Shown piece after piece: positions 4,066-50,326 of a DNA stretch of 64,000 bases. The position numbers were made by a program, and so were the translations under genes. The notes beneath the pieces are model-generated. The model was not told the origin of the DNA, searched no databases, and saw nothing but the letters and a program-made list of their open reading frames with translations. The DNA comes from an uncultured Candidatus Binatia bacterium (GTDB lineage: Bacteria; Desulfobacterota; Binatia; UBA9968; JAJDTQ01). Each line of letters begins with the position of its first letter. The stretch's first letter is position 1. The stretch lies in assembly GCA_964291295.2 (NCBI GenBank), contig OZ219754.1:1696001-1760000 (forward strand). The letters are read 5' to 3'.

Positions 4066-5459
4066 CCGAGCTTTGCCTTCCAGTCGTTCAGGGTAACGAA
4101 CCGGCCGCCCTCGACGACTGTGTAGTAGACCTTCTGCAAACCCTGCCGGCGTTCCGGCCCGAAGGAGACCGCTTCACCGATTCCCAGGTCGAAGTCGCGC
4201 ACGGAGAACACGGCTGCTTCCAGCCCGCGCCGGCTCGGTCTCCCCTTGAGCCGCCGGAGGATCTCCACCATCAGCTTCGCGTCCAGAAACCCCTCCAGGC
4301 TCACGAAGCTCTGGGGAAACGGGGTGTAGGCCTCCTTTATCAGCCGTGCGGGCACTTGGGGGTCGTACCGCGCCATCAGCTGGCGATACTCCCTCACCGC
4401 CGGGAAGGAGGTGTCCTCGTAGCTGGGCACCACCTGCGAGTTGACCAGATAGCGGGTGTAGACGTCGGCGTCGTCACGACCTTCGGACAGCAGCTTGAGC
4501 AGGTTCTCGCTGCCGACGAACGAAAGGTTGGCGATGGGAACCCGAAGGCCCAGGTCCACGGCGTCACGGACAAAGCCGGCGCACGCGGCATAGGCGCCGA
4601 CGCAGATCACGGCATCGGGTGAGGCCTGTTTCAGGATCTCCACCTGGGCCCGGAAGCTGCCGGTGAAGCGCGTTCCCCGGCGGTACGTGGCCTCGCCGGC
4701 GACCCTTGCGCCGTGTTCTTTCAGGGCCGCCCGGACGCCGGCCCAACCGCTCCGGCCGTAGGCGTCGGCCTGGTAGAACATGGCAATGCGCTTGCGGCCG
4801 ATGCGGACGAAGTTGTTCACCAGGCCGGCGGTTTCCTGCCGGTAGGAGGCCCGCAGATTGAAGGCGAAGTCGCCGTATGGGGGTTCCCGCTGCGGTTGAG
4901 CTCCGGTGAAGGGGAAGAAGAGGTAGACCTGCTGGTCCTGGAACTTCTTCAGCATGGGCAGGACCCGGGTGACGGTGGGCGTGCCCACATACCCGAAGAG
5001 CAGGAAGACCCGGTCCTCCAGCATGAGCTTGACGGTGTTCTCGACACAGGGGTCCGGCTGATAGCCGTCGTCGTAGAGCCTGAGCGCAATCCTGCGGCCG
5101 TTGACGCCGCCGTTCTCGTTGATGTGATTGAAGTAGGAACTGGCGCCGCGGTAGAGTTCGGTGCCGAGTCCCCGGGAAGGGCCGGAAAAAGCGGCGGACA
5201 CCCCCAGGATGATCTCGTCGTCGTTGCTGCTGCTGTCGGCGGCGCCCGCGGAACCGAGCCACGGGGGCGCGAGCATCGCCAGCAGTCCGGCGCCCACCAC
5301 CTGCCTGCGCGTCCAGTGCGCCCGGGTGGACAGGCGCACCCCGCGGTCACCTCCGCTGCGACCTTCCGTCCTCACATGCGACCTCGCTTTCTTCAAGCCC
5401 GGCGAGCCGGGAACCGGCGTGCTGGAGACCTGAATGCCGGTCTCCGACGTGTCGGACAA
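4062..5459 (-). CDS. branched-chain amino acid-type (type 1) periplasmic binding protein, Tat-like signal
   Basis: TRRQVVG twin-Arg; INENGGVNGRRIAL..YDDGYQPD, GYVGTPT, YQADAYG; start uncertain. Confidence 0.88.
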   Translation of the reverse strand: MSDTSETGIQVSSTPVPGSPGLKKARSHVRTEGRSGGDRGVRLSTRAHWTRRQVVGAGLLAMLAPPWLGSAGAADSSSNDDEIILGVSAAFSGPSRGLGTELYRGASSYFNHINENGGVNGRRIALRLYDDGYQPDPCVENTVKLMLEDRVFLLFGYVGTPTVTRVLPMLKKFQDQQVYLFFPFTGAQPQREPPYGDFAFNLRASYRQETAGLVNNFVRIGRKRIAMFYQADAYGRSGWAGVRAALKEHGARVAGEATYRRGTRFTGSFRAQVEILKQASPDAVICVGAYAACAGFVRDAVDLGLRVPIANLSFVGSENLLKLLSEGRDDADVYTRYLVNSQVVPSYEDTSFPAVREYRQLMARYDPQVPARLIKEAYTPFPQSFVSLEGFLDAKLMVEILRRLKGRPSRRGLEAAVFSVRDFDLGIGEAVSFGPERRQGLQKVYYTVVEGGRFVTLNDWKAKLG

Positions 5460-5573
5460 TCAGGGTCGGCGTGAAAACCCACCGCGCAGACTAACCCGCT
5501 TCCCTTCCTGAATCAACGATGCGCCGCGGGGTCTCCGGCGGCGGCCCGGCGTCCGCCGTGCTCATCGCCATGC

Positions 5574-43804: not shown

Positions 43805-45307
43805 TCAGGCGATCACTGCCGCAATCGCTCGTCCGATCTTCATTCGGGTCCACCGGTATTGATGCTTCATGCGGGACACCTTATCTTCTCGTGGCGTCTC
43901 GGCGAACGGGTACTGGGGCCTGCCGCCTTCACCAAGCCCCTGGCGATCACCATGCGAGAATTCGCAACTGGCCACGCACCGGCTCGGATGTTCGAAGGGT
44001 TCGGTTCGTGCCTCCACGAAACGGTGCTCGAACGACCATTGGCCGGCGGTCGGTACGTCGTCGTGCCACCAGTCCTCGCCGATCAGGTAGCGGACAAGCA
44101 TTCGTGTCTGCTCGGCCGCCACGGCGCCACAGAACCCGATCGTGTTCTGGCCTGGTTCCGGCCCGTCCGCAATACCGTCGTTGATGTAGCGCCCGTGACG
44201 CCTGATGCCCATGCGCTCGTCTCGGGCATCGCTGCTGGTGTACTGACCGCGACAACGTAGGCATTTCATGTCGGGGCCAATCAGGTGGACCTGCCACTTC
44301 GCAGACAACAGGCGCTCCCGCGACTCCACGAGAACGCCGCCGTCGATCAACGGAAGGCAGTTTGCATAGGCGAGGTGATTGAGAACCTCGCGCGCCTCAG
44401 CGTTGTCGACACAGCACACGATGACGGCGGCGTCGGCGGCCAAACGGTACGCGCGCTCGGTGCGGATGGACAAGGGCACCGGGCGCATGACCGGACGCCG
44501 TGCAGCGGCGATTCTGCGAAGGTGAGCCACGGCCACCTCCGCTTTGGGCAATCCCAGGCAGTGCCGATCGGCGTAGATCAGGCGATCGAGGTTCTTTTGC
44601 TCGACTAGGTCCGGGTCAATAACGGTGATCTCCTCGAACCCGGTGCGTGCTAGATATTCGAGCACCAGCGAACCCACACTCCCCGCACCGACGACGCAGA
44701 CATGCGTGCGCGCCAGCCGTGACTGTGCCGCGATACCCCAGCTGTCGATGGTCCTCACCAAGTTCGAGCGCCGAGCGTAAGGTGGATACGCATCCGGATG
44801 CCAATCCACTCCCGTATGACGCGGCCCGATCCGCCGAACTTCCGTGCAAGGCACAGGGACGATCCGGCCATGCGCGGACTGCCGCCAGAAGCGCGCGCTC
44901 CAGACACCGTTCGAACCTATCGTCAGCCCGAGCAGGGGCAGGCCGGTCTCTCGAATGAAGGGCGCAATGGTGTTGCGCTCTGTATCGTCGTCCATGCCGG
45001 TCAGACCCTGCCAACCGGGAGCAGGGTGGCTGTGAAGGACCGCGATGCCCGCTTGGGCTTTGACCGCATGATCCAGCACCCGGTTCAGGTATTGGCCGTG
45101 CACCGTGACGTTGCTGTTTAGATCGCGATCGCCGTTTTCCGGGAAGAATGCCTTGCCGAGGATTCCTGTGTAGCTGTCAAGTCCGTCGGCCCGGCGCCAC
45201 AGTGCGAGGCATGCCTCCTCCTGTATCCCACCGTGCTGCAGGCCCCTGAGCAGGTGATCCGCGAACTGCCGGTGCAGCACTTCGCGCAGGACGACGCGGT
45301 GCCTCAA
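43805..45307 (-). CDS. JAB/JAMM peptidase - ThiF/E1 fusion protein
   Basis: N-terminal QEEACL...HSHP-x7-TGMD (JAMM-like); C-terminal VVGAGSVGS, IDPD.VE.KNLDRL, K, CCVDN..AR, CLRC, C..SC; TTG start overlapping the upstream TGA. Confidence 0.88.
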   Translation of the reverse strand: MRHRVVLREVLHRQFADHLLRGLQHGGIQEEACLALWRRADGLDSYTGILGKAFFPENGDRDLNSNVTVHGQYLNRVLDHAVKAQAGIAVLHSHPAPGWQGLTGMDDDTERNTIAPFIRETGLPLLGLTIGSNGVWSARFWRQSAHGRIVPVPCTEVRRIGPRHTGVDWHPDAYPPYARRSNLVRTIDSWGIAAQSRLARTHVCVVGAGSVGSLVLEYLARTGFEEITVIDPDLVEQKNLDRLIYADRHCLGLPKAEVAVAHLRRIAAARRPVMRPVPLSIRTERAYRLAADAAVIVCCVDNAEAREVLNHLAYANCLPLIDGGVLVESRERLLSAKWQVHLIGPDMKCLRCRGQYTSSDARDERMGIRRHGRYINDGIADGPEPGQNTIGFCGAVAAEQTRMLVRYLIGEDWWHDDVPTAGQWSFEHRFVEARTEPFEHPSRCVASCEFSHGDRQGLGEGGRPQYPFAETPREDKVSRMKHQYRWTRMKIGRAIAAVIA

Positions 45308-45729
45308 CGAGCGCTCCAGATTCTGCGGATGTGCCTGTCCAGGTAGACGCTCATGTTCTTTCCGTTTGGTGTGTCGATCCGATCCCAGAAATCGTTCGGC
45401 GGAGCGCTGATCACCATCCAGTGGCGCCCCTCCGCACATGGATAGGTCTCTACAACTCCCGGCGGCCGGGCTCCCCGCACCTGCTCGGCCAGAACAGCAT
45501 CCGGCGGCGAGATGTACACCCAGTGCGGTGCCACTTCGGGCCACTTCCCCTCGTTCTCGTGGACGGCGACCGCCAAGGTTACGGTTTCCCCGGCGCGGCT
45601 GCCGTCCTTGATCCGGTATTCGAAACGGACGCCGTCCGCGCCGCCCTGTTGCTCTGGCGCGGTGAAGGGTCCCGGTCGGTAGCGCAGACCGAAGAGTTCG
45701 GCTGCCATGCGTTCAGAGTTCTGGCTCAT
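45304..45729 (-). CDS. prokaryotic E2/UBC-like protein
   Basis: WPEVAPHW (xPxxPP-type E2 loop), GRHWMVISAPP..W, MSVYLDRHIRRIW; lies between Ubl and E1 with ATGA/TTGA overlaps. Confidence 0.68.
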   Translation of the reverse strand: MSQNSERMAAELFGLRYRPGPFTAPEQQGGADGVRFEYRIKDGSRAGETVTLAVAVHENEGKWPEVAPHWVYISPPDAVLAEQVRGARPPGVVETYPCAEGRHWMVISAPPNDFWDRIDTPNGKNMSVYLDRHIRRIWSAR

Positions 45730-45968
45730 GCGAACGGCGCCCCCTTCTCCGGGGCCGCCCGAAACACGTTGTGCTCGTCGAGGTTCGCTTGTTGACCCGA
45801 AACGAAAGTCACCTCCGAGTCCGGCACCCGCAGTACGTAGCCGGTCTTGTCGGGATCCCCACCGATTGCTTTCCCCTTGAACGCGATCCGCAACAACACG
45901 GCCGCGTCGACCGACCGCCGGTCCGTGAAGAACGTTTCGCCGTTCACCTTGAACTCGTACTGTTCCAT
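45726..45968 (-). CDS. ubiquitin-like beta-grasp protein (multi-ubiquitin-like single domain)
   Basis: YEFKVNGETF...VDAAVLLRIA...YVL...ANLD..NVF pattern, 80 aa, AGGAGG RBS, first gene of the E2/E1 operon. Confidence 0.72.
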   Translation of the reverse strand: MEQYEFKVNGETFFTDRRSVDAAVLLRIAFKGKAIGGDPDKTGYVLRVPDSEVTFVSGQQANLDEHNVFRAAPEKGAPFA

Positions 45969-46033: not shown

Positions 46034-46105
46034 AAGATAGCAGTCGCTGGAGGTGTCGTCAACTTATGGTTGACATTTCGATATATTATACATAGAATGT
46101 CAACC
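46034..46105. promoter_or_regulatory. back-to-back sigma70 promoters with palindromic operators
   Basis: + strand TTGACA(46070-75)-17-TAGAAT(46093-98); - strand TTGACG(46062-57)-17-TATCTT(46039-34); IRs GGTTGACATT-18-AATGTCAACC and GTCAAC-5-GTTGAC. Confidence 0.75.
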
Positions 46106-46128
46106 CTTAGGGAAAGGAGGGTCTGGGG

Positions 46129-47208
46129 GTGTTCGGACAACGACTTCGGCTGGCCCGCAAACGGGCAGGTCTTTCAATGCGCGAACTCGCGGACGTGATG
46201 ACCCCGAGGGTGACCGCTCAGGCGATCAGCAAGTACGAGGCGGACAGGATGCTGCCCTCTTCCGCTGTACTAGTCGGGCTAGGCAAGACTCTTGATGTCT
46301 CGCTGGATTTCCTCATGAGCGGACAGTTCGAGGCGCTTGACGGTGTGGAGTTCCGAAAGCATTCCAGTGCGTCGGCTCGTGACCGCGCCAAGGCCGAAGC
46401 GATCCTGATCGACAGCCTGGAGCGTTATCTGGCCATCGAGCACATCCTCGACATACCCTCCGACGCGGGCTGGATCGAGGGGTGCCGTTACGACAGTGTC
46501 GCAAGCGAAACCCAGATCGACGAGAGGGCCGATGAGCTTCGCAACGCCTGGGGTCTTGGCATGGATCCAATTCCCAGCTTGTGCGAATTGCTCGAAGACA
46601 AGAACATCAAGGTGGTCGCAGCCGACCTGCCCGAAAGCATCAACGGTCTTTCATGCCACGTTCGGCGGGGTGGCAAGACCGTTGCCGAGGCCGTCATGGT
46701 GTCCAGCCGGATCAATGTCGAGCGGAAACGTTTTACGCTCGCCCACGAACTGGCCCACAGGATCATTCGTTCTACGGGAAACCCGGCGATCAATGTGGAG
46801 GCGGCCATAAACCGGTTCGCTGGCGCATTCCTCGTTCCCGGCCAACGTCTGCGGGACGAGGTGGGCCACGACCGCCATCGGATTACGTACTACGAGATCA
46901 TTCGCCTGAAACACATGTACGGCGTCTCCGCGGCGGCCGTCCTGGTTCGTCTGGGGCAGGTTGGTGCATTGCCCTCCGCTGCCATCGAACGTGCCTTCGC
47001 AACCTTCGCCCACTCCTGGCGCAAGTCGGAACCGGATCCCATCGGCGAGGATCACGGGTTCGCAGCCTTCGAAAAGCCACACCGTTTCAAATGTCTAGTG
47101 TCTCATGCGGTGGGCGAGGAGTTGATTTCGCCGGTGCGTGCAGCGGCACTTCTCAACCAGTCGCTTGACTCCGTCGAGCAACAGATCAGCGGTCCGATGA
47201 TCCAGTGA
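46129..47208 (+). CDS. XRE HTH - ImmA/IrrE zinc metallopeptidase fusion
   Basis: GQRLRLARKRAGLSMRELA...AISKYE; RKRFTLAHELAH, E..INRFAGAFLVP; AAGGAGG RBS. Confidence 0.92.
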   Translation: MFGQRLRLARKRAGLSMRELADVMTPRVTAQAISKYEADRMLPSSAVLVGLGKTLDVSLDFLMSGQFEALDGVEFRKHSSASARDRAKAEAILIDSLERYLAIEHILDIPSDAGWIEGCRYDSVASETQIDERADELRNAWGLGMDPIPSLCELLEDKNIKVVAADLPESINGLSCHVRRGGKTVAEAVMVSSRINVERKRFTLAHELAHRIIRSTGNPAINVEAAINRFAGAFLVPGQRLRDEVGHDRHRITYYEIIRLKHMYGVSAAAVLVRLGQVGALPSAAIERAFATFAHSWRKSEPDPIGEDHGFAAFEKPHRFKCLVSHAVGEELISPVRAAALLNQSLDSVEQQISGPMIQ

Positions 47209-47714
47209 CGTGCGTCATCGTCAACGATGCTTCCTGCCTGATCGATCTCCGCGAGGGTGATCTGCCTGCCGCCCTTGGTGATCTCCCTTATCGAATCGTG
47301 GTTCCGCTGCCGGTGCGCGCAACCGAAGTGCTCGATCTGTCCGAGCACCAGTGGCGAGCGCTCGATGACGCAGGGATGATCACGCACGATCTCACACCGG
47401 AGGATGTCGGTCAGGCCCTCCGGCTCAAGGGTGGCCACCCCGGCCTCTCTGCGAACGACTGCTTCTGTCTTGTCACCGCGCGGGCTTGCTCCGGCATTCT
47501 GCTGACGGGCGATGCCCTGCTACGCACGGTCGCCCTCGCTGACGGCTTGCAGGTACACGGCGTGCTTTGGGTCGTGGACGAACTCGACTCTGCAGGAATC
47601 TGTTCCAGATCGTTACTTGCTCGAGCCCTCAAGGTCTGGCAAGAGGACGTCAGCGTCTTCTTGCCGGAACAGGAGATCTCTCTACGCCTGAAACGCCTCT
47701 CGGAAGCCCGGTAG
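47205..47714 (+). CDS. PIN domain protein (putative ribonuclease toxin)
   Basis: IVNDASCLIDL, GLSANDC, LLTGDALLR, VHGVLWV; GTGA overlap with the peptidase. Confidence 0.85.
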   Translation: MTCVIVNDASCLIDLREGDLPAALGDLPYRIVVPLPVRATEVLDLSEHQWRALDDAGMITHDLTPEDVGQALRLKGGHPGLSANDCFCLVTARACSGILLTGDALLRTVALADGLQVHGVLWVVDELDSAGICSRSLLARALKVWQEDVSVFLPEQEISLRLKRLSEAR

Positions 47715-48236
47715 CGGAGGCAACGATGATGACAAGGCACCCGTGCCGAATGGATCAACCCGGACTGACGGCCGCACAGACCACCTGCCTCGCAATCTCG
47801 CCTGCCGGAGCAACGCCGCCACCGCCATCGTCCGCTGCAACCGTCGCTTCCGCTGCTTGCCCGAAGCCAACCGCCAACTATGCCGCCCGGGCCCAGGACG
47901 CCCTCGACGCCATCCTCATCGCTCCCACCGCCTGAAACACACCCCACGCCGCCCCACCCTCGCTGCCCGGTGCCGGGCTCCCCTCTGCCCGTCAACTGGC
48001 CTTGACCTTCACTTTCGCTTGGTGAAACCGCCCTCCATACCCGCCCATACTTCCTCTCCCTCTGCCCCCTGTATGCGCCATCGCCCTCTTCCCTCTCCTG
48101 AACCCGGAGCTATGAATCATCCCTGCGCACAGCCCTTGCCATCCGATCCTCTTCTGCGCCATATTGTCCGTCAGGCGAAAGGGGCGCCCTCGTCACGGGG
48201 GTGCTCGATACGGGACCAACGACCGGACAGGCTGCC

Positions 48237-49676
48237 ATGCTGACCCGTCTTGAAGTGGACGGCTTCAAGAATCTGGTCGATTTTTCCATCGATTTCGGCC
48301 CATACACCTGCATTGTCGGACCGAATGGAATCGGGAAATCGAACATATTCGATGCCATCGTTTTTTTGTCGCGTCTGGCCGATAAACCCATCATTGAGGC
48401 AGCTGCCGCTGTCCGCACCGGCTCCGGTGATTTGGATCGGATCGACGATTTGTTTTTCCGCAGCGGCCCTGTGCGCAAGAACTCGTTCAAGATAGCAGCA
48501 GAGATGTTGGTGGAGCGCCGCATTTCCGACGATTTCGGACGTCCCGGGACAGCCACGTCCACCTTTCTTCGTTATGAGATAGAAATCGGGAAAAAAGCAA
48601 AGAGTCGAAGCGACATCGCCCACCCTCTCGACATCGAACTGCGGTCGGAGTCCCTTTATCCTATCCGCAAGGGAGACGCCGCGAAAAAGCTGCGGTTCCC
48701 GCATTCGAAGTTTAAATTCAGGGATCGAGCGGTGCAAAACCACAGATTCACCAGAGCCGGCTATATTTCCACCGAAAACGGCATTGGCAAAGAGGCAGAG
48801 ATCGTTGTTCACCAAGATGGTGGTTCCAGGGGACCTGGGCAAAAAGCCCCTGCCCGCGGTGCGCCTCGGACGATTGTCGGAACGACCAACACCATCGCAA
48901 CCCCGACAATTCTCGCTGCACGGCGGGAAATGCAACGTTGGCGTTTGCTGTCCTTGGAGCCAAGTGCTATGCGCCGCCCGGATCGCCTGGGCCGCGATCC
49001 CGATATGGTCTCAGACAATGGAGCCCATCTCGCCGCTGCTCTTTACCGGCTCAAGAACGCTGAAGCAAGCGGCATCGATGCTATCGCAAATATTTCATCG
49101 AGGTTATCGGAACTTGTTCCTGTTACCCGCATTGATGCGATTCGCGATGAGACTCGCCAACTCCTGACATTGGAAGTCACCGAACGCGATGGCCAGCAAT
49201 TTTCGGCAAGTGCCATATCAGACGGGACTTTGCGGTTTCTCGCTCTTGCGATATTGGCGGAGGATCCAAAGGCTCAGGGCCTGCTTTGCATGGAAGAGCC
49301 CGAGAACGGCGTTCATCCAGAACGTTTGGAATCCATGGCCAACCTGATACGAGACATGGCAGTGGATGCCGGCGATGAACTGGACGACGACAATGTCATG
49401 CGTCAGGCAATTGCAGCGACACATTCTCCTTATTTTCTCCAGCTTCAGAACGAGGACGATATATTGCTGGCAAAGGAAATTGTTCGACGACATGAGAGTC
49501 AACCGATACCGGTTCTGCGGTGCTATCCGCTGACAAGGACTTGGCGCGCCAAGTTGGGCGAACCAAATTTGGCCCTTGGCCTGTCCACGATATTACCCTA
49601 TCTCAGTCCGCCGGCTGGCGCTCAATTGAAGCTACCACTGCCACTTCAGCCACATCCGCCGGTTGCAATACCATGA
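48237..49676 (+). CDS. ABC/SMC-like AAA ATPase (AAA_21/RecF-like)
   Basis: VDGFKNL, GPNGIGKSN, ISDGTLR, MEEPENGVHP, ATHSP. Confidence 0.92.
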   Translation: MLTRLEVDGFKNLVDFSIDFGPYTCIVGPNGIGKSNIFDAIVFLSRLADKPIIEAAAAVRTGSGDLDRIDDLFFRSGPVRKNSFKIAAEMLVERRISDDFGRPGTATSTFLRYEIEIGKKAKSRSDIAHPLDIELRSESLYPIRKGDAAKKLRFPHSKFKFRDRAVQNHRFTRAGYISTENGIGKEAEIVVHQDGGSRGPGQKAPARGAPRTIVGTTNTIATPTILAARREMQRWRLLSLEPSAMRRPDRLGRDPDMVSDNGAHLAAALYRLKNAEASGIDAIANISSRLSELVPVTRIDAIRDETRQLLTLEVTERDGQQFSASAISDGTLRFLALAILAEDPKAQGLLCMEEPENGVHPERLESMANLIRDMAVDAGDELDDDNVMRQAIAATHSPYFLQLQNEDDILLAKEIVRRHESQPIPVLRCYPLTRTWRAKLGEPNLALGLSTILPYLSPPAGAQLKLPLPLQPHPPVAIP

Positions 49677-50326
49677 ACGGGAGAATTGTCCGATTTGCCT
49701 TGATTTGCGAAGGAAATTCGGACAAGGCTCTCGTCGAACACCTTCAAGGCCTATTGATTTATTGTGGGGCAGCAGAAGCTGTCGGCGTAGCGGTTTCCCA
49801 GTCGTCGATAAGGCCATTGAAGACCGGGGCGACGAGGGCGATCGGCGATAAGATTCGAGCGTTTCTGTCGTTCGATTCGGAATATGATCTTCTGTTCATC
49901 CACAGGGACACAGACAATATGAATTATGAAAGCAGATTTGCGGAAATCGAGAGCGGAATGGCCGGAGTCCAAGTAACTTTCTTCTGGATTCCAGCGATTC
50001 CGGTGAGGGAGACGGAGGCTTGGCTTCTGCTGGATGAGGCGGCAATCCGAAGGGCCGCCGGCAACCCGAGAGGAAAGGTGCCTCTCGGGTTGCCAGAACC
50101 CGTCCGGATAGAGGATGTTGCAAACCCAAAGGAGGTTCTCAGGACAGCGCTTTCGACCGCCAGCGGCCAGCAAGGGGGACGTTTGCGGAGATTCAAGAAG
50201 AAGTTCTCGCAGCAAAGACGTAGTCTTTTGGAACAACTACCCGTCGGTGGCCCTTTGGAACATGTCCCGGCATGGTGCCGACTGAAGCGGGCCGTGGAGG
50301 ATTTCGTGAGTGCTCCCGCCGAATAG
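49673..50326 (+). CDS. DUF4276/RloB-like TOPRIM-fold protein
   Basis: LICEGNSD, IHRDTD, PVRETEAWLL, NPKEVL; ATGA overlap with the ATPase. Confidence 0.8.
   Translation: MNGRIVRFALICEGNSDKALVEHLQGLLIYCGAAEAVGVAVSQSSIRPLKTGATRAIGDKIRAFLSFDSEYDLLFIHRDTDNMNYESRFAEIESGMAGVQVTFFWIPAIPVRETEAWLLLDEAAIRRAAGNPRGKVPLGLPEPVRIEDVANPKEVLRTALSTASGQQGGRLRRFKKKFSQQRRSLLEQLPVGGPLEHVPAWCRLKRAVEDFVSAPAE

Follow-up and report, generated by a model that had tools for sequence, protein, structure and literature searches.

A candidate Bub-type ubiquitin-like conjugation operon without BubE in an uncultured Binatia bacterium

A 64,000-nucleotide stretch of the genome of an uncultured Candidatus Binatia bacterium (GenBank assembly GCA_964291295.2, contig OZ219754.1, positions 1,696,001 to 1,760,000), hereafter the window, carries three tightly packed minus-strand genes. 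In order, they encode an 80-residue ubiquitin-like protein (Ubl), a 141-residue protein resembling ubiquitin-conjugating enzymes (E2) and a 500-residue fusion of a JAB (JAMM) peptidase with the adenylation domain of ubiquitin-activating enzymes (E1). We consider it fairly likely that this triad is a Bub-type Ubl-conjugation operon (class 6e of Iyer and Aravind) belonging to a branch without BubE, with an oxyester relay and with regulation by a divergently encoded helix-turn-helix (HTH)-M78 peptidase protein, as proposed below. Bub systems are the least understood bacterial Ubl systems, their oxyester chemistry being established for one Citrobacter and one Escherichia coli operon. The locus shows a BubE-less branch with a minimal 80-residue Ubl, a different arrangement round the conserved Ser of the E2 and the JAMM domain as the only peptidase, and it raises the question whether BubE is dispensable. 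The system is real and well conserved, and the branch lies outside the published Bub catalogue. The triad consists of the following features (coordinates are those of the window).

45726..45968, minus strand: Ubl gene (BubA-like), open reading frame (ORF) and translation of 80 aa, a single beta-grasp domain
45304..45729, minus strand: E2-like gene (BubB-like, UBC fold), translation of 141 aa
43805..45307, minus strand: JAB-E1 fusion gene, 500 aa, TTG start
44798..45307, minus strand: JAMM/JAB peptidase domain of the fusion, residues ~1-170, with E30, H92, H94, T103 and D106
43805..44749, minus strand: ThiF/E1 adenylation domain of the fusion, residues ~187-500, with the Pfam ThiF and BubCD profile matches

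The three proteins and their relation to Bub

The Ubl and E2-like genes share an ATGA at 45726-45729, the E2-like and JAB-E1 genes share a TTGA at 45304-45307, and an AGGAGG lies 6 nucleotides (nt) upstream of the ATG of the Ubl gene. An earlier note, made from the letters of the window alone, had described three co-oriented genes joined by such overlaps, and the coordinates, the translations and the recurrence of the triad in 45 further loci agree with it. Family alignments were built from 31 E2-like proteins (A1), 22 JAB-E1 proteins (A2), 30 diverse E2-like proteins including Ubl-E2 fusions (A3) and 18 Ubls (A4). The earliest possible start of the JAB-E1 ORF would yield a protein of 579 aa, however, the homologues begin at the aligned TTG column of A2, and 500 aa is therefore the correct length. 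The possibility that the separate Ubl and E2-like genes stem from a frameshifted BubAB fusion was rejected: the split and its ATGA overlap are conserved, and split forms are found in Table S1 of the Bub preprint (10.1101/2024.11.21.623953).

The 500-residue protein is, as the earlier note had it, a JAB-E1 fusion, and it is related to BubCD. Its best relative in the PDB is Citrobacter BubCD (9ea4_A), found by phmmer with an E-value of 2.7e-20 over query residues 4-329; a profile of the family reaches BubCD with an E-value of 6.5e-28 and aligns the HSHP...D motif to it. The residues of the N-terminal JAMM pattern, E30, H92, H94 and D106, are invariant in 22/22 homologues, and position 103, a Thr in the window, is Ser in at least 90% of the 22 aligned homologues. 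Pfam at E<=10 returned for the JAB part only a chance-level Phage_Orf51 row (E 0.29). One ThiF domain only is present, at residues 187-407 (Pfam E 3.2e-35), with the E1 motifs G207xGSVG, N239LDR, K255 and D301; the JAMM and the adenylation motifs are both intact. The protein had no match in the phage collection. Its last ~30 residues (43805-43900) are basic and hydrophobic (...RWTRMKIGRAIAAVIA), with a sequence that varies and a character that is similar in relatives, and may form an amphipathic membrane- or partner-binding segment.

The 80-residue protein adopts a beta-grasp fold in an AlphaFold2 (AF2) model with a predicted local distance difference test (pLDDT) score of 84.3. The top Foldseek matches of this model are the bacterial multi-ubiquitin proteins 8u38, 9d5b and 9cd2 together with Citrobacter BubA (9ea8_B, residues 155-229), at probability 1.00, template modelling (TM) scores of 0.59-0.69 and E-values of 2-3e-3, ubiquitin itself ranking lower. 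The earlier note's expectation of a beta-grasp protein is thereby upheld. Searching the PDB by sequence, whether with the Ubl itself or with the A4 profile, returned nothing meaningful, and Pfam (E<=10), PADLOC and NCBIfam held no match for it.

The earlier note had also taken the single-domain Ubl as a possible mark of a variant system. This does not hold for Bub, since 40% of Bub Ubls are single-domain according to one preprint (10.1101/2024.11.21.623966) and the genes are split in Type I Bub as well. Separate Ubl and E2 genes are listed for at least ~30 Type I Bub operons in Table S1 of a second preprint (10.1101/2024.11.21.623953), and split Ubl/E2 genes of class 6e were already included in Table 1 of Iyer et al. 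2006. Going by these tables, the split is not new for class 6e/Type I Bub.

The 141-residue protein was modelled by AF2 from 31 sequences with a pLDDT of 88.6 and a predicted TM-score of 0.84. The top match of the model in VIA-align is Citrobacter BubB (9eae_C; Z 8.6, root-mean-square deviation 3.8, 118/128 residues aligned), followed by the UEV domain of Tsg101 (Z 6.8), Ube2W (6.4), and then Atg3 and other E2s, which bears out the UBC fold that the earlier note had supposed. The BubB match was seen with VIA-align only; Foldseek gave weak rows, none at E<=0.001. By sequence, neither the protein alone nor the A3 profile found anything meaningful in the PDB, and Pfam (E<=10), PADLOC and NCBIfam were likewise empty for it. 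Of 192 candidates, 126 are homologues at E<=0.001; among the 120 homologues listed, nearly all are 141 aa long, a few are of 92-203 aa, and none carries a Pfam domain.

A family profile run against 1.84 billion representatives returned 155 matches at E<=0.001, 42 at <=1e-10 and 6 at <=1e-30. Three of them only were full-length members of the core family; the search also gave a distant group of ~125-aa proteins and six Ubl-E2 fusions. Long repeat proteins that matched only a short hairpin were set aside. When 30 remote relatives were scanned, sub-threshold matches were found to Prok-E2_E in 7, to Multi_ubiq in 2 and to RWD in 1 (0.0092). One neighbour cluster in ESM-Atlas has Prok-E2_E in 18% of its members, which we treat as a lead only.

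On these sequence comparisons and structural models, the triad is a member of the 6e/Bub (DUF6527) branch of bacterial Ubl systems, since both small ORFs fold as Ubl and UBC domains and the closest known relatives are of Bub type: BubCD by sequence, BubB by fold, and BubA with the multi-ubiquitin proteins by fold. The reference for Type I Bub (6E.1) is the BubAB-BubCD-BubE operon of Citrobacter sp. RHBSTW-00271 (Ye, Gong, Chambers & Corbett, bioRxiv 10.1101/2024.11.21.623953). The window locus resembles it in (i) the gene order Ubl, E2, JAB::E1 with matching JAMM and adenylation motifs; (ii) a UBC fold without C-terminal helices or catalytic Cys and with an invariant Ser; (iii) putatively, an E1 crossover region with invariant Tyr and without a catalytic Cys; (iv) a Ubl of the multi-ubiquitin type with a conserved Gly before the putative cleavage point; and (v) the association with HTH and M78-peptidase regulators. 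It differs in that its Ubl ends in a 4-residue APFA tail, whereas the Bub Ubl is fused to the E2; in that its E2 has S-A-P-P, and His69 at the place of Asp299, where Bub E2s have D...S-x-H; and in that its proteins are too diverged for the Pfam models Prok-E2_E, Multi_ubiq and Prok-JAB. The HTH and M78 parts of its regulator are fused in a single protein, whose gene is followed by one for a PIN toxin. The most conspicuous difference is that neither the locus nor the genome has BubE/DUF6527.

Bub operons are defined in part by the presence of the BubE gene (in the words of the preprint 10.1101/2024.11.21.623953, 'All Bub operons possess bubE'), and the window operon has none. The BubE family (PF20137, DUF6527) had 0 matches in the genome from which the window comes, which is 99.1% complete, and none in 31/37 other genomes carrying the triad. 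The matches in the remaining 6/37 are on other contigs or more than 340 kb away and belong to separate canonical Bub operons. The published Bub catalogue was built from DUF6527-containing operons (10.1101/2024.11.21.623966; Table S1 of 10.1101/2024.11.21.623953), so that branches without BubE were never counted. In our literature search, outside which the peer-reviewed versions of the Bub papers lie, no paper was found on a BubE-less branch or on a Ubl triad combined with an RmrA-type module.

The suggestion that the locus is an uncharacterised variant is supported: it is uncatalogued, and both BubE and S-x-H are absent. The E1-E2 models of PADLOC match the JAB-E1 protein over the ThiF core (residues ~194-329) only. 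The Bil systems (BilABCD) and the Cap2/Cap3 proteins of CBASS share the E1/E2/JAB logic and the setting in defence islands. The window triad is set apart from Bil by its single ThiF domain (187-407), its fused JAB and the want of a conserved E2 Cys. Cap2 of CBASS is an E2-E1 fusion acting on a CD-NTase, and no CD-NTase was seen in the genes inspected from 37.9 to 53.3 kb.

The divergent HTH-M78 and PIN genes

Upstream of the triad, and facing away from it, lie a putative regulator gene and a candidate toxin gene, separated from the Ubl gene by a shared promoter region.

46129..47208, plus strand: fusion of an HTH (XRE) domain and an M78/ImmA-IrrE peptidase, 359 aa, RmrA-like/CapH-CapP-like, HExxH present as HELAH
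47205..47714, plus strand: PIN-domain (VapC-like) toxin candidate, 169 aa, sharing 4 nt with the end of the regulator gene
46034..46110, no strand assigned: shared divergent promoter region with an inverted repeat and two promoter-like sites

The regulator matches Peptidase_M78 (4.4e-15) and HTH_3 (1.3e-9) in Pfam and RmrA (PDLC03949, 4.5e-41), capP (3.4e-14) and capH (1.3e-4) in PADLOC, and it matches the spr1629 repressor/antitoxin model of NCBIfam under its cut-off. The Pfam match of the PIN protein is weak (E 0.0081); its acidic residues D8, E41, D85 and D103 are conserved in an alignment, its homologues carry precomputed PF11848/PF01850 annotations, and the name VapC family toxin is attached to two of them. 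Elsewhere in the same genome there is one more, distant PIN homologue of 33% identity (G000:C1:3368098-3368574).

The promoter region contains an inverted repeat at 46063-46077 / 46096-46110 with the core GGTTGACA...TGTCAACC. This palindrome overlaps a strong rightward promoter-like site (TTGACA-17-TAGAAT, 46070-46098, 11/12) and abuts a leftward one (TTGACG-17-TATCTT, 46062-46034). The cores GGTTGACA and TGT(A/C)AACC are conserved across phyla in an alignment of 13 such regions. A look-up of sequencing runs listed no RNA data, only three DNA-type rows that belong to a single study. We propose that the divergent HTH-M78 peptidase would bind the conserved palindrome and, upon infection or DNA damage, would release its own PIN-toxin operon together with the Ubl operon.

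Two known arrangements resemble this one. As in RosmerTA (RmrT/RmrA), a protein combining an HTH domain with an ImmA-type protease is followed by a small toxin-like gene, and the RosmerTA antitoxin type is found with a variety of toxins, including PIN-like proteins (Ernits et al., PNAS 2023, PMC10440598); the window pair differs in being joined divergently to a Ubl-conjugation operon, and its toxin is a candidate from sequence. As with CapH and CapP, an HTH repressor and an M78 peptidase stand divergently upstream of an immune-type operon (10.1101/2024.11.21.623953, PMC13373217), although CapH and CapP are separate proteins and have no toxin partner, whereas the window has one polypeptide and a PIN gene.

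The 45 related loci, retained from 67 pattern matches, comprise 38 close loci (E2 identity 48-83%) and 7 distant ones (29-34%). All lie in metagenome-assembled genomes (MAGs), and by their record titles they represent at least 8 phyla; the E2 identity of 55-83% across phyla shows that the cassette moves between them, and the family is a clear case of compact-cassette transfer across phyla among uncultured and, by name, marine bacteria. The groups represented include Latescibacterota, Alpha- and Gammaproteobacteria, Thermodesulfobacteriota, Spirochaetia, Acidobacteriota, Gemmatimonadota, Opitutales and Dadabacteria. Several of the lineage names are marine, and Poriferihabitaceae alludes to sponges, in both cases as names only.

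With the window proteins as queries and a single-ORF coverage of at least 0.95, the triad is intact in 31/38 close loci. Of these 38 loci, 30 have a full-length HTH-M78 gene, 4 have one that is partial or belongs to another lineage, and 4 have none; the PIN gene is full-length in 21, partial in 8 and not found in 9 (3 of these at contig ends). The earlier note's term 'self-contained' therefore does not fit, since the HTH-M78 gene stands alongside the triad in 30/38 close loci, usually with the PIN toxin gene.

The same association could arise if two unrelated neighbours, an autonomous Bub-like triad and an autonomous Rosmer-type module, shared a mobile cassette and an intergenic region without being coupled, which we regard as possible but unlikely. 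Several observations speak for this alternative and against the regulation proposed above. L029, L030, L031 and L038 have the triad but not the pair, the regulator/PIN pair stands alone among housekeeping genes at L084 and L085, and the PIN family has 855 matches vs 126 for the E2 family. Furthermore, the PIN gene is partial in L007, L013, L017, L021 and L025 and absent in L023, with the triad intact in all six, which implies that PIN is not required for retention of the triad. The PIN ORF (~5000-5550) of these six loci is cut, stop-split or missing and their regulator is full-length; the decay could be real or could be a sequencing error, as frameshift errors in MAGs could mimic it. Finally, the ~30 co-occurrences may descend from one transferred cassette, a history that the high identity across phyla would suit.

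The recurrence of the layout in other lineages and orientations argues against two uncoupled neighbours. In L034, an HTH-M78 gene of a different lineage and a PIN-like gene run in the same direction as the triad, and L042 has another HTH-M78/PIN-type pair 2.4 kb upstream of the triad. Relatives of JAB-E1 were also found on plasmids (42 records matched, all at <60% identity), where, at 31-35% identity, the layout recurs in actinobacteria: on the plasmids pRWAY01 of Rhodococcus and pCCa of Clavibacter, an HTH_3+Peptidase_M78 protein of 358-375 aa is encoded divergently from the triad and followed by a small gene, HigB-like in pRWAY01, and on the Nocardioides plasmid pCHL an ImmA/IrrE gene precedes the triad. 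In addition, CapH and CapP accompany 31% of catalogued Bub operons according to the preprint (10.1101/2024.11.21.623953), and the conserved palindrome is so placed that it touches both divergent promoter-like sites. Considering both sides, regulatory coupling of the triad and the HTH-M78/PIN module is somewhat more probable than its absence, and direct biochemical coupling of the two is a minority possibility. Downstream of the triad, pCHL carries a gene of the aminoglycoside-phosphotransferase family with a kinase fold (L086 5849-6772), and pRWAY01 an Abi_2 abortive-infection gene (L093 5102-6103).

Direct coupling would make the five genes one system in which Ubl conjugation and a toxin-antitoxin switch influence one another. 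We hold this to be doubtful, and keep it open because an RmrA-like gene with a variable toxin gene (PIN, HigB-like) recurs beside Ubl-E2-JAB::E1 in far-diverged lineages. The RmrA-like antitoxin/repressor or the PIN toxin might then be armed or disarmed by conjugation of the Ubl to it; alternatively, the M78 peptidase might sense infection and license conjugation. If true, this would be the first toxin-antitoxin module under the control of Ubl modification and a concrete candidate target for the Bub class. The recurring pairing of an HTH-protease with a toxin is itself a handle on when the pathway switches on and on what it might modify.

The proposed oxyester relay

For the BubE-less operon with an HTH-M78 regulator, which remains our preferred explanation, we propose the following route. 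The Ubl would be made as a precursor ending in G76-APFA and trimmed to Gly76 by the JAMM domain, whereupon the E1 domain would adenylate Gly76. The Ubl would be handed as an oxyester to a tyrosine of the crossover loop, Y374 or Y356, and from there to Ser108 of the E2-like protein, aided by His69 instead of the histidine of the Bub S-x-H motif, and would end on lysines of target proteins. The JAMM domain may also reverse the conjugation, replacing the absent BubE. A predicted complex of the E1 domain (residues 175-500), the Ubl and the E2-like protein scored 0.22 vs a mark of 0.32, controls not having been run, and is counted neither for nor against the relay.

The earlier note had called the C-terminus of the Ubl Gly-less. 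The protein does end in ...EKGAPFA, without a terminal Gly or a GG terminus, however, an invariant Gly lies four residues from the end, and the terminus probably consists of G76 and an APFA propeptide. G76 and F79 are invariant in 18/18 Ubls of A4, the tail reading G76-A-P-F-[A/S] in all except L036, where it is G-G-F-A. In the Ubl-E2 fused relatives G-x-T-P-V stands at the junction. The Ubls of L031, L034 and L038 have 6-7 further residues beyond GAPF[AS] and would therefore need trimming. By analogy with BubC, which cleaves BubAB directly after a conserved Gly (10.1101/2024.11.21.623953), APFA is reasonably likely to be a short propeptide removed by the JAMM domain. The invariance of the APFA tail is unusual for a discarded propeptide and tells against this; the mature end could be Ala80 instead.

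Oxyester chemistry, as in Bub, is probable because neither a conserved Cys in the E2-like protein nor a catalytic Cys in the E1 crossover region is present. C98, the sole cysteine of the E2-like protein, was ruled out as a catalytic residue, being not conserved across the 31 sequences of A1. In the JAB-E1 protein the sole invariant cysteines after residue 330 are the zinc-type C349xxC352 and C444x3C448 (A2); no invariant Cys lies between C352 and C444. Two tyrosines of the crossover region, Y356 and Y374, which follow the CxxC and precede the QN motif, are invariant. The relay is proposed by analogy with Citrobacter Bub, where conjugation is reported to be abolished by mutation of Y370 alone and by that of S333 and H335 together (10.1101/2024.11.21.623953). 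Y370 of BubCD is the Tyr of 'ERGYITG' (chain index minus 2), and on sequence grounds Y374 or Y356 is plausible as its equivalent.

In A3, whose sequences are diverse and include fusions, P64, P68, S108 and W115 are invariant, and H69 and H133 nearly so. P64, P68 and H69 belong to the motif W63-P64-x3-P68-H69, and Ser108 lies inside S-A-P-P. For comparison, canonical BubB-like E2s (A6) were taken from DUF6527-bearing Bub operons in four of the carrier genomes; they match 9eae_C at 8e-22 and have D299 in LDMFY and S333/H335 in WSRH. Aligning A3 with A6 by hhalign (probability 6%, E 0.006) places S108 on S333, H69 on D299 and P110 on H335, the block W-P-x3-P-H69-W..S-P-P being matched with Y-P-x3-L-D299-M..D-P-P, and W104..S108-A-P with W..S333-R-H335. 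On this reading of the alignments, the serine is kept, the Bub histidine at +2 is a proline here and a histidine stands at the place of the Bub aspartate.

Some of these results count against the relay. The S-x-H motif of Bub is absent, most of the 30 sequences in A3 having S-[A/R/V]-P and none having His at +2, and the mapping of residues onto BubB is weak, relying on an hhalign match of 6% probability and on the fold match. As hidden Markov models (HMMs), the A1 and A3 profiles did not detect canonical BubB, and at E<=1 the A1, A3 and A4 HMMs detected no Ubl or E2 of the canonical Bub operons in the same genomes. On the E1 side, a joint MAFFT alignment puts the canonical Tyr ~7 residues from Y374 in a gappy loop, and the C-terminal 151 residues have no PDB relative by sequence.

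The missing S-x-H and the absence of a conserved cysteine would also be expected if the 141-residue protein were a catalytically dead adaptor of the UEV/RWD kind, with the E1 itself transferring the Ubl, or doing no more than adenylating and binding it. The Tsg101 UEV domain as second-best fold match (Z 6.8), the sub-threshold RWD match (0.0092) in one remote relative and Table 1 of Iyer et al. 2006, in which 6e is entered as 'inactive E2-/RWD like', point the same way. Nevertheless, the Ser is invariant in 30 diverse relatives and aligned with S333 of BubB, one of the two residues whose joint mutation stops Citrobacter Bub, BubB itself is the best fold match, and in all intact loci the E2 gene is translationally coupled between the Ubl and E1 genes. 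We therefore consider a dead adaptor quite improbable.

A sulfur-carrier, cofactor or peptide-modification pathway (of the ThiS/MoaD-ThiF/MoeB, QbsE/QbsD or MccB kind) can be dismissed as very improbable: the E1 does score against the ThiF/MoeB models of NCBIfam (TIGR02356, E 4.7e-23) and keeps the zinc-type CxxC...Cx3C set, however, its best score of 81.6 bits is far under the curated cut-off of 275, the Ubl has a GAPFA tail in place of GG, there is no rhodanese domain, a UBC-fold gene accompanies the E1 throughout, and the locus lies among defence genes and unrelated neighbours, with no biosynthetic gene within ~6 kb. The earlier note had seen no thiamine, molybdopterin or sulfur-carrier genes nearby, and none lies within ~6 kb of the triad; the genes found in that range encode an ABC ATPase, a GDSL lipase, a luciferase-like monooxygenase, an alpha/beta hydrolase, an MFS transporter and topoisomerase I.

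Defence context and distant loci

The block sits between the MFS transporter and topoisomerase I genes. Its G+C (GC) content is 0.52-0.62 across 46-50.5 kb vs 0.65-0.70 in the flanks, and two further genes of the island are candidates for a defence pair:

48201-49676: HEC-01A candidate, AAA_21/AAA_15 ATPase (PADLOC 1.8e-99)
49520-50326: HEC-01B candidate, DUF4276-like protein (PADLOC 2.2e-22)

Since the triad is associated with a lower-GC island holding the HEC-01 candidate pair, an anti-phage or stress role of the locus is likely, as far as gene neighbourhood can indicate; the earlier note's 'probably defensive' is likewise a matter of association. The flanks of related loci were scanned for defence genes: 153 ORFs of at least 200 aa within 4.5 kb of the block were selected in 34 loci, and the first 100 of these, covering L001-L023, were compared with PADLOC. 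Matches at E<=1e-10 were found in 16/23 loci, a rate that has no background control, and include Type I/IIG/III restriction-modification, Gabija, Iet, HEC-01, PD-T4-7 and PDC candidates. The want of a control weakens the case for a defensive role, as does the statement in PMC13373217 that Bub has not been demonstrated to protect against phage. The HEC-01 pair (48201-50326) is the part of the island lowest in GC (0.52-0.57), and the same pair flanks the cassette in L001.

The distant subfamily, L039-L045 (e.g. L042:6408-10028 and L041:6989-10575), has a Ubl of 149-168 aa, an E2, a JAB-E1, an AAA_21/AAA_15 ATPase of ~420 aa and a ~155-aa protein with a faint PIN_9 match (E 0.027); the ATPase and the small protein are present in 6/7 loci. 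The ORF clustering of the 45 loci is clouded by antisense ORFs of GC-rich DNA and was used only to spot these extra genes. Finally, ~4 kb are inserted in L035 (7001-12933) between a broken E2-like gene and an intact JAB-E1 gene, and the insertion is probably a mobile element.

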